This document shows positions 6,287 through 6,636 of a stretch of 64,000 nt of DNA, piece by piece. The notes beneath the pieces were generated by a model. That model had not been told where the DNA came from. It was given only the letters and a program-made list of their open reading frames with translations, and did not search any database. The stretch covers positions 620,001-684,000 of the forward strand of contig CP089279.1 of the NCBI GenBank assembly GCA_023920165.1, given 5' to 3'. Source of the stretch: Curvularia clavata (lineage: Eukaryota). Position numbers and translations under genes: made by a program. The number at the start of each line of letters is the position of its first letter. Position 1 is the stretch's first letter.

Positions 6287-6636
6287 CTCCGATCGTCTGA
6301 CTTCAACGGCGGACGACTCGACAGCGTGTGCCGGACCAGACCCAAACTTTTCTTTTGAAAGCAAAAGAAGGTGTACCCGATTGCTGGGCTTACCTGGAAA
6401 TCAACGCCAAAAGCACAAAGAAGCATGCGTACCTGAACAAGCGGGCGTGCCCTGACGGGCGTACCCGGAAGCGGACGTATCCCTGGGAAAGAGGCGGACC
6501 TCAACGGGCGTACCCGGAGTAATCAGCATATCCTTAGAAGACGGCGTACCCCAACGGGTTAGGAGGAGGAAGGGTCGAATCGAACAAGAGTCAACAACCT
6601 CGGGGATGGGTGTCCGAGTTTACCCGCAAGCAAAGT

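Follow-up and report, generated by a model that had tools for sequence, protein, structure and literature searches.

A degenerate tandem repeat of small hairpin-like words in a structured RNA stretch downstream of a WD40 gene in Curvularia clavata

A 64,000-nucleotide (nt) stretch of Curvularia clavata DNA (GenBank assembly GCA_023920165.1, contig CP089279.1, positions 620,001 to 684,000; hereafter the window) carries, at 6369-6625 on its minus strand, a dense array of GGGUACGCCC-like words that resemble both tiny hairpins and 5' splice sites. All these words belong to a single tandem repeat, short and degenerate, and are not ten independent events. The array lies in a long non-coding 3' tail, or read-through, of a WD40 transcript, and its copies are not splice donors in the assembled molecules. 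As to function, we give an even chance to the reading that the array is a multivalent RNA element amplified from one conserved hairpin. Coordinates are window positions, and the array is read on the minus strand, so that a low coordinate is the 3' side in the RNA. The array and its words, the latter read from the sequence, are as follows.

6369..6625, minus strand: the array, a degenerate short tandem repeat of about 9-10 GGGUACGCCCGCUUCC-like units with pyrimidine-rich linkers, defined by sequence and copy alignment
6443..6515, minus strand: best-kept centre of the array, five adjoining copies (GGGUACGCCC, GAGGUCCGCCUC, GGAUACGUCC, GGGUACGCCC, GGGCACGCCC) spaced 14-18 nt
6515-6506 and 6466-6457, minus strand: GGGUACGCCC
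6452-6443, minus strand: GGGCACGCCC
6482-6473, minus strand: GGAUACGUCC
6502-6491, minus strand: GAGGUCCGCCUC
6550-6543, minus strand: GGUACGCC
6377-6370, minus strand: GGUACACC
6394-6387, minus strand: GGUAAGCC
6625-6616, minus strand: GGGUAAACUC, inside the conserved 3' extension of module C (see below)
6842-6833, minus strand: GUGUACACAC, outside the array
6433-6426, minus strand: decayed copy GGUACGCA, added here

Apart from the added copy, these are the GG(G)-NNNN-(C)CC sites listed in an earlier reading of the window from its letters alone (the sequence-only reading), which gave their low coordinates; all are present. Anchored on the GG, ten sites align together with their flanks to one unit, with consensus ccgttcc(g/a)GGTACGCCcgctt. 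Copies are spaced 13-18 nt in the centre and decay towards both edges, and in the copy alignment the core 8-mer and the U-N-C-G loop letters are better kept than the linkers. A repeat search also paired 6444-6469 with 6493-6518 at 81% (family D11, two copies). Because the sites are copies of one unit, their likeness to hairpins and their likeness to donors both stem from a single repeated word.

The clustering reported by the sequence-only reading is above chance, both by pattern counts and against dinucleotide shuffles. In the 64-kb window, the pattern GG[TC]A[CA][GA]CC has 13 matches on the minus strand, six of them within 6369-6640 (272 nt), and three on the plus strand. The same interval holds three of the four occurrences of GGTACGCC and 7 of the 46 minus-strand occurrences of GGTA[CA][GA]. 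Hairpins of 3 bp with a YNCG loop number six in the array and 0.52 +/- 0.69 in shuffles, with none of 2000 dinucleotide shuffles reaching six. Repeated 6-mers as such are not unique to the array: 76 of 3187 sliding 260-nt windows hold some 6-mer at least four times. Over the whole transcript (5906-7567), YNCG mini-hairpins number 14 in sense and 2 in antisense, with about 1.5 expected; shuffles of this stretch have a mean of 2.6 and a maximum of 9, and none of 1000 reaches 14.

Seven of the nine sites listed earlier within the region can form at least three pairs, two of these only with G.U. A YNCG loop on a stem of at least three pairs is found in five array copies (6515, 6501, 6482, 6466 and 6452); a sixth qualifying hairpin, at 6561, is not a repeat copy. 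In the remaining copies, the stem is shorter or the loop is UAAG, UACA or UAAA. Stems had been described as varying in a compensated way, which is true of GGA/UCC and GAGG/CCUC, the only compensated variants in the window array. Two sites form only two pairs.

Evidence on the RNA comes from contigs of four sequencing runs on 4900-7900: X5 and X8 (for which RNA is only a guess), X19 (from an oligo-dT metatranscriptome) and X20. X19 is without cover at 6386-6425, 6992-7140 and 7568-7685, and X20 covers only 5733-5894 and 7871-7900. A WD40-type open reading frame (ORF) on the minus strand terminates at about 8242, and the region between it and an ORF at 2781-4022 lacks any long reading frame that is conserved. 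Contigs of X5 (3508 nt) and X8 (3265 nt) extend from the predicted cut site of a candidate ribozyme (see below) through a series of structured RNA modules, past 7900 and into the WD40 gene. For comparison with relatives, DNA around homologues of the WD40 ORF was collected from metagenome contigs, giving 42 loci (L001-L042). Two of these, L003 and L006, start at the WD40 start codon; L006 is without both introns of L005 and L003 without the second, and since these introns are removed, both are contigs of complementary DNA (cDNA) type. L006 continues through all five of its modules and its own array to 7 nt before the predicted ribozyme cut. Reading the words at the RNA level, as had been done from sequence, was thus reasonable: the strand chosen is the transcribed one, and the stretch is unspliced in RNA-type contigs.

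In the window, the array takes up the spacer between modules C and D, which are the third and fourth copies of the structured module. Five orthologous spacers were compared: that of the window, the one between units u4 and u5 in L006 and L007, and the one between u3 and u4 in L008 and L011. L006 has GGTACG, GGTACGCC and GGTATA...CGCCC, while L007 has GGTCCGCC, GGTACGCC twice and two decayed copies, on YTTTC(A/G)-type linkers. L008 and L011, whose WD40 identity is about 75%, have a single copy, GGGUUCGCCC, within GGGTTCGCCC. Thus at least one copy is retained at the same spacer in all five lineages, although BLAST no longer recognizes the spacer around it; when the window and L007 are compared, BLAST matches nothing in this spacer outside the modules except the array word (6447-6421 to 3436-3462, 89%). 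Across copies, U, C and G of the loop are kept and N varies (A, C, U), and L007 adds a compensated stem, AGG/CCU. Sense YNCG mini-hairpins occur at 3.5-6.3 per kb in L005, L006 and L007, compared with about 1 per kb in the remainder of the locus. Within the species of the window, the X5 and X8 contigs differ from the window array by one base change (6483) and by no length change, and no length polymorphism of the array is seen in X5, X8 or the covered part of X19. A separate run of small hairpins, unrelated to the array, lies in L005 at 11740-12010, in the spacer between the last module and the ribozyme (CCA-UUCG-UGG, CCC-UCAU-GGG and CCC-UCAC-GGG).

From this comparison, one GGG-UNCG-CCC hairpin would be an old conserved element of the spacer, which multiplied, probably by slippage, giving 3-5 copies in the closer relatives and about nine here. 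Repeated short GC hairpins on pyrimidine-rich linkers could then offer many copies of one docking site, or could pair with one another. We prefer the multivalent RNA element because the ancestral copy is conserved, the core is better kept, stems are compensated and similar runs recur. A repeated docking site for one RNA-binding protein, as the sequence-only reading suggested, is possible.

Several results weigh against this preference. Tandem Repeats Finder, run on 5000-8500 with a minimum score of 30, returned no rows. Array copies share descent, and therefore the enrichment statistics overstate their independence. Two of the nine sites form only two pairs, as noted, and the added copy GGUACGCA forms one; counted by eye over the window, L006 and L007, about five uncompensated stem changes exceed the three compensated ones. 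A C-G closing pair is the source of the special stability of UNCG loops, and all copies are instead closed by G-C or A-U, as G(UACG)C or A(UACG)U. Both the minimum free energy (MFE) and the centroid fold of 6360-6640 skip the mini-hairpins and pair copies with each other. The MFE of this stretch is -84.6 kcal/mol, compared with -89.1 +/- 5.0 kcal/mol for shuffles (z = +0.89), and 157 of 200 shuffles fold at least as well as the native sequence. Copy number varies from about nine in the window to 3-5 in L006 and L007 and one in L008 and L011. GYNCGY cores with two further pairs are enriched, 9 of 31 in the five orthologous spacers and 59 of 478 elsewhere in the window, which speaks for conservation, but the difference is modest and its cells are not independent (one-sided Fisher p = 0.014). 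L008 and L011 show no mini-hairpin enrichment, with 1.55 and 0.52 per kb in sense compared with 1.64 and 0.90 elsewhere in the locus. Finally, the RNA evidence is all from contigs, for which strand, ends and rare isoforms are uncertain. Of the mini-hairpins proposed from sequence, then, the words and their density stand, but their independence and their formation as hairpins were overstated; the motif recurs in the orthologous spacer of relatives, in L008 and L011 as a single copy.

The main rival is a neutral by-product: in a fast-evolving spacer, replication slippage would have multiplied a small palindromic word rich in GC, which is now decaying without function and whose own sequence accounts for the apparent hairpins and the donor-like words. 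This would account for copies that align to one unit and are decayed at the array edges, for a copy number that differs among relatives, for folding no better than that of shuffles, and for a remainder of the spacer that is not conserved; nor does the native spacer help the predicted folding of the adjoining modules (see below). It explains less readily why all five lineages keep a copy at the same spacer in surroundings that BLAST no longer recognizes, why the core 8-mer is better kept than the linkers, the three compensated stems, the constant length in X5, X8 and the covered part of X19, and the independent mini-hairpin run in another spacer of L005. On balance we consider a purely neutral origin possible but somewhat doubtful.

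The structured modules that flank the array were found by a repeat search in the window, then with a profile of four units, and then with a covariance model (R1), over the 42 loci. The repeat search found a unit of about 100 nt four times in the window; the full module is about 145 nt.

7294..7435, minus strand: module A (orthologue of u1), R1 match 121.8 bits
7048..7190, minus strand: module B (orthologue of u3), R1 match 109.8 bits
6621..6769, minus strand: module C (orthologue of u4), R1 match 126.8 bits, directly upstream of the array in the RNA
6131..6299, minus strand: module D (orthologue of u5), R1 match 114.0 bits, downstream of the array

Orthology to u1, u3, u4 and u5 of L005, L006 and L007 holds unit by unit. 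Relatives have 4-5 modules per locus, always on the gene's strand and downstream of the WD40 gene; they occur in L003-L009, L011 and L025, with WD40 identities of 70-81%. Beyond these, neither R1 nor the ribozyme model R2 gave a convincing match in L012-L042 or in the rest of the 64-kb window. When 23 modules are aligned, their consensus has five helices and 18 pairs, and compensatory change is seen in 14 of these pairs. Of 413 cells, 98.5% are paired, compared with 21-51% when partners are slid, and no shuffle reaches any of five measures. The module RNA is the minus strand of the window, because many pairs are G.U on that strand. YNCG/UNCG hairpins cap module helices at 7101, 6749, 6280 and 6195.

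Searches for a known identity of the modules gave little. Conserved nucleotides fall in different frames in different copies, so that the modules are not coding. By eye, box C/D or H/ACA small nucleolar RNA, k-turn, hammerhead, twister and transfer RNA-like folds did not fit, and neither did a histone-type stem-loop (CUUUUCAG loop) or a circularly permuted hepatitis delta virus (HDV) fold; no program supports any of these readings. Nor do we claim that the modules are homologues or decayed copies of the ribozyme. Local alignment of the ribozyme with eight modules was not above shuffles (z at most 4.1 with the ribozyme copy of the window, and near 0 with those of L005 and L008), and a ribozyme-like fragment at 7530-7511 scored 24, compared with a shuffle maximum of 25. 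No contig breaks occur at modules in X5 or X8. Rfam gave no match at gathering score in the 64-kb window; on 5000-8500, with E up to 10, it gave seven chance-level matches, none on the array, the modules or the ribozyme.

Some further features of the modules were seen. The small 5' hairpin with which several modules open, H0, is a word of the type found in the array (AGG-CUCG-CCU, ACG-UUCG-CGU and CGG-UUCG-CCG, at 6749-6740 and 6280-6271 in the window, 3033-3042 in L006 and 3206-3215 in L007), and either of the two may have given rise to the other. The C-rich box of the modules, CCCCGCCACC, reads CCCGCC in the window clade, where the 3' strand of ribozyme helix P1 reads GCCGCCU; in L008, the modules have CCCAUC or CCCACC and the ribozyme strand GCCAUCU, the same G-to-A change in both elements. 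Taken as a whole, modules and ribozyme are not significantly similar in sequence. An inverted repeat of 16 bp at 7452-7483, 94% complementary and with no spacer, forms a long hairpin directly before module A in the RNA.

About 460 nt downstream of the array lies the best-conserved block of the locus, 5925-5798, which has 81% identity to L005 12459-12601 and L008 4426-4548 between unalignable flanks. It contains the following elements.

5803..5905, minus strand: candidate HDV-like self-cleaving ribozyme, from conservation, nested fold and contig ends
5905-5899 with 5868-5862, minus strand: P1, GGGCGGU with GCCGCCU
5898-5889, minus strand: J1/2, 10 nt
5888-5882 with 5809-5803, minus strand: P2, CCCUUGC with GCUUGGG
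5881-5879 with 5871-5869, minus strand: P3, GCC with GGU
5878-5872, minus strand: L3, 7 nt (8 nt in L005)
C5877 and C5876 with G5861 and G5860, minus strand: P1.1, two L3 cytosines with GG
5856-5819, minus strand: P4, a variable hairpin
5818-5810, minus strand: J4/2, containing C5815
5906..5925, minus strand: conserved 5' flank of the ribozyme (GAUCGCAAGAGGAGGAU), columns 22-27 paired with 54-59 by RNAalifold, model R2 positions 1-30

The nested double pseudoknot has 31 pairs, with 95.6% of cells paired in three sequences and 42-50% in slid controls. Two-sided changes affect eight pairs: one in P1 (C-G to U-A in L008), one in P2 and six in P4. All three sequences have the C in J4/2 and a G.U as the first P1 pair, and the L3 loop closely resembles that of the genomic HDV ribozyme. 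The predicted cut falls between U5906 and G5905. Contigs of all four runs break near it, the upstream ones ending at 5906 (X8), 5908 (X19) and 5913 (X5). Among the relatives, position -1 is the very last of the L011 and L025 contigs (...GAGAUGGAC), and that of L006 stops 7 nt short of the predicted cut. Downstream contigs start at 5894 (X20), 5893 (X5) and 5876 (X8), not at 5905, and so 11-29 nt inside the predicted 3' product; those of X5 and X8 run into Illumina adapter. A cut at 5906/5905 does not account for these starts, for which trimming, a second cut or stalling of reverse transcriptase in the folded ribozyme may be responsible. Each contig end by itself is weak evidence. From the fold and the contig ends together, 5905-5803 is quite probably an HDV-like ribozyme.

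Two side observations concern this region. GAGGAGG at 5917-5911 (GAGGUGG in L005 and L008) can pair with CCUCCUC at 5880-5874 of P3/L3 and is kept in all three sequences; such a helix, if formed as predicted, would compete with the ribozyme fold. Downstream of the ribozyme, 5656-5578 on the minus strand resembles a box C/D small nucleolar RNA, with AUGAUGA (5656-5650) and CUGA (5581-5578) separated by about 79 nt. This stretch has no Rfam match, and nearby there is only a weak one to SNORD112, further upstream (19 bits, E = 3.4, at 5718-5805).

With modules and ribozyme as neighbours, the array might act as a folding insulator, its fast-folding mini-hairpins soaking up the GC-rich spacer and sparing the modules and the ribozyme from interference. 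UNCG/YNCG-capped hairpins are indeed enriched along the whole transcript and also cap module helices, and one study (PMC3185411) gives a precedent, in that upstream sequence modulates HDV-like ribozymes through alternative pairing. A calculation of the partition function, however, lends this no support. For module C, the mean consensus-pair probability is 0.412 with the native spacer and 0.578 +/- 0.125 with 60 dinucleotide-shuffled ones, of which 57 are at least as good as the native one; for module D, it is 0.326 and 0.322 +/- 0.056, and 32 of the 60 are at least as good. Together with the distance of about 460 nt from array to ribozyme, this makes insulation improbable.

The sequence-only reading had offered decoy sites for U1 small nuclear ribonucleoprotein (snRNP) as its other possibility. 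In a wider form of this, G/GUACGC and G/GUAAGC (the slash marks the junction) would be pseudo-5' splice sites that recruit U1 snRNP but are not spliced, acting as decoys or in nuclear retention or surveillance, or else would act as alternative donors. The resemblance is real: 7 of the window's 46 minus-strand GGTA[CA][GA] words fall within the array, eight of the ten window copies have GUA at +1 to +3, and donor-like words do occur in the transcript, such as GA/GUAAGU after the ribozyme. But contigs of all four runs show no splice joints in 4900-7900, with the limit that contigs would miss rare isoforms and any U1 binding that leads to no splicing, and none of their molecules is spliced at an array donor. 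Three records are colinear over the array: X19 record 2 (6426-6773), X5 record 9 and X8 record 12. The cDNA-type L006, without the two coding introns seen in L005, is yet colinear through its modules and its own array (L006 203-4352 aligned with L005 8342-12468, 4151 columns). The fungal donor consensus has GU at +1/+2 and a purine at +3. GGUCCGCC and GGCACGCC in the window do not fit it, nor do GGUCCGCC and GAUCCGCC (two of five copies) in L007, which misfit at +2/+3, as does GGGUUCGCCC, the sole copy of L008 and L011. In these paralogous and orthologous copies, the UCCG, CACG and UUCG loops break donor positions +2/+3 and keep the UNCG/YNCG loop, and this includes the ancestral copy. The CC after the word is also as well kept as the GU, and donors do not need CC. 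The U1 decoy or 5' splice-site reading is therefore one we largely abandon, as very improbable. The word GA/GUAAGU itself lies between 5792 and 5791 on the minus strand, 11 nt past the last helix of the ribozyme, and the X20 contig (162 nt, 5733-5894) crosses it unspliced.

At the DNA level, CCGGGTACGCCCG has the form CGG-N6-CCG, in which some fungal transcription factors of the Zn2Cys6 class have their inverted half-sites, and the array could be read as an enhancer or internal promoter element; this we hold to be the least probable reading, since the two perfect sites (6516-6505 and 6467-6456), the several CCG half-sites and a position 460-720 bp before the cluster of RNA ends near 5894 are outweighed by the presence of both half-sites in only two of ten copies, by loss of the layout in relatives (TGG..CCG and CAG..CTG in L007, CGG-N7-CCG in L006, TGG..CCA in L008 and L011), and by a strand asymmetry and stem compensation that point to RNA.

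Other observations concern the ends of the transcript and the neighbouring genes. The X19 contig that covers the WD40 gene stops at 7686, in a palindromic GUCACGUGAC word (7682-7691); contigs of L001, L002 and L013 end 20-40 nt past their CACGTGAC; and a CT-rich, promoter-like tract lies at about 7570-7640. As a weak hint, from contig ends only, there may be a proximal end of the messenger RNA (mRNA) near 7686 and a separate start for the module RNA. The L007 contig ends in eight A (3847-3854), about 110 nt past its last module and just after a GGUCUUUCGGGACC hairpin; this may be a poly(A) or oligo(A) tail or a genomic A run. The WD40 protein has only generic WD40 and beta-propeller Pfam matches, its named homologues being 'hypothetical', and the ORF at 2784-4022 has no Pfam family match.

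A wider proposal, which we regard as rather unlikely, takes the array, the four modules of about 145 nt and the ribozyme as one device. It would be an undescribed modular scaffold RNA, appended to or read through from the WD40 mRNA and matured by an HDV-like ribozyme and not by a poly(A) site. Its GG-UNCG-CC tract would serve for multivalent protein docking or RNA-RNA pairing, a fungal counterpart of Xist repeat A, and its modules would bind a second factor.

Full-text literature searches turned up one relevant paper, Li and Breaker (2017, PMC5640933), and none that describes for fungi an array of hairpins, modules of this repeated kind or a WD40 transcript with a ribozyme at its end, though the alignments of PMC5640933 may already list the ribozyme. 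Three elements look new: the family of modules of about 145 nt, with strong covariation and no Rfam match; the placement of modules and hairpin arrays on a transcript continuous with the WD40 mRNA; and the coincidence of a transcript end with a predicted ribozyme cut. Taken alone, the array is a modest curiosity, a repeat unit that is both a small hairpin and donor-like, and it draws its importance from its location within 1.7 kb of strongly structured, conserved and unspliced RNA that has no Rfam family. If these readings are true, the locus offers a natural fungal transcript with a 3' end made by a self-cleaving ribozyme and a new structured RNA family with clear covariation, and repeated modules and hairpin arrays outside animals become testable in a genetically tractable kind of organism.

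The array shares with minisatellites its head-to-tail units of 13-18 nt and a copy number that differs between species. Unlike them, it is too decayed for Tandem Repeats Finder, shows no length differences among X5, X8 and X19, and keeps its core better than its linkers. It resembles 5' splice sites or U1 sites in non-coding RNA in that many copies read G/GUACG or G/GUAAG, but here no splicing is seen and conserved variants break the donor positions.

The candidate ribozyme can be set beside fungal HDV-type ribozymes, of which Li and Breaker (2017, PMC5640933) count 230 in 26 species. Hallmarks of the fungal variants, according to that paper, are a C-G pair where cleavage occurs, a P4 with an E-loop and one additional nucleotide between P2 and P3. 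Like HDV-like ribozymes, the window element has the nested P1/P1.1/P2/P3/P4, with P1 at the predicted cut and a variable, covarying P4, and is also alike in its P3 of three pairs, its L3 of 7-8 nt and the C in J4/2; it differs in having G.U at the cut and not the typical C-G (PMC5640933). This likeness concerns the array's neighbour, not the array, and comes without an Rfam family match.

The nearest comparisons for the array and the modules are animal RNAs. Repeat A of Xist, a mammalian long non-coding RNA, has copies of a GC-rich tetraloop-type hairpin on U-rich linkers. Both it and the array are made of short GC-rich hairpin words with pyrimidine- or U-rich linkers in non-coding RNA, and in both the copies can pair mutually instead of locally, as the energy fold of the window predicts. 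The window array differs in being fungal, in its period of 13-18 nt and not tens of nt, in a copy number that varies among close relatives and in having no sequence relation to Xist. NORAD is a modular long non-coding RNA built of repeated structured units; the modules here are alike in that 4-5 paralogous structured units lie along one non-coding stretch and are orthologous unit by unit. They belong to another kingdom and are unrelated in sequence; they also follow a coding region on the same transcript, in an RNA that ends at a candidate ribozyme.

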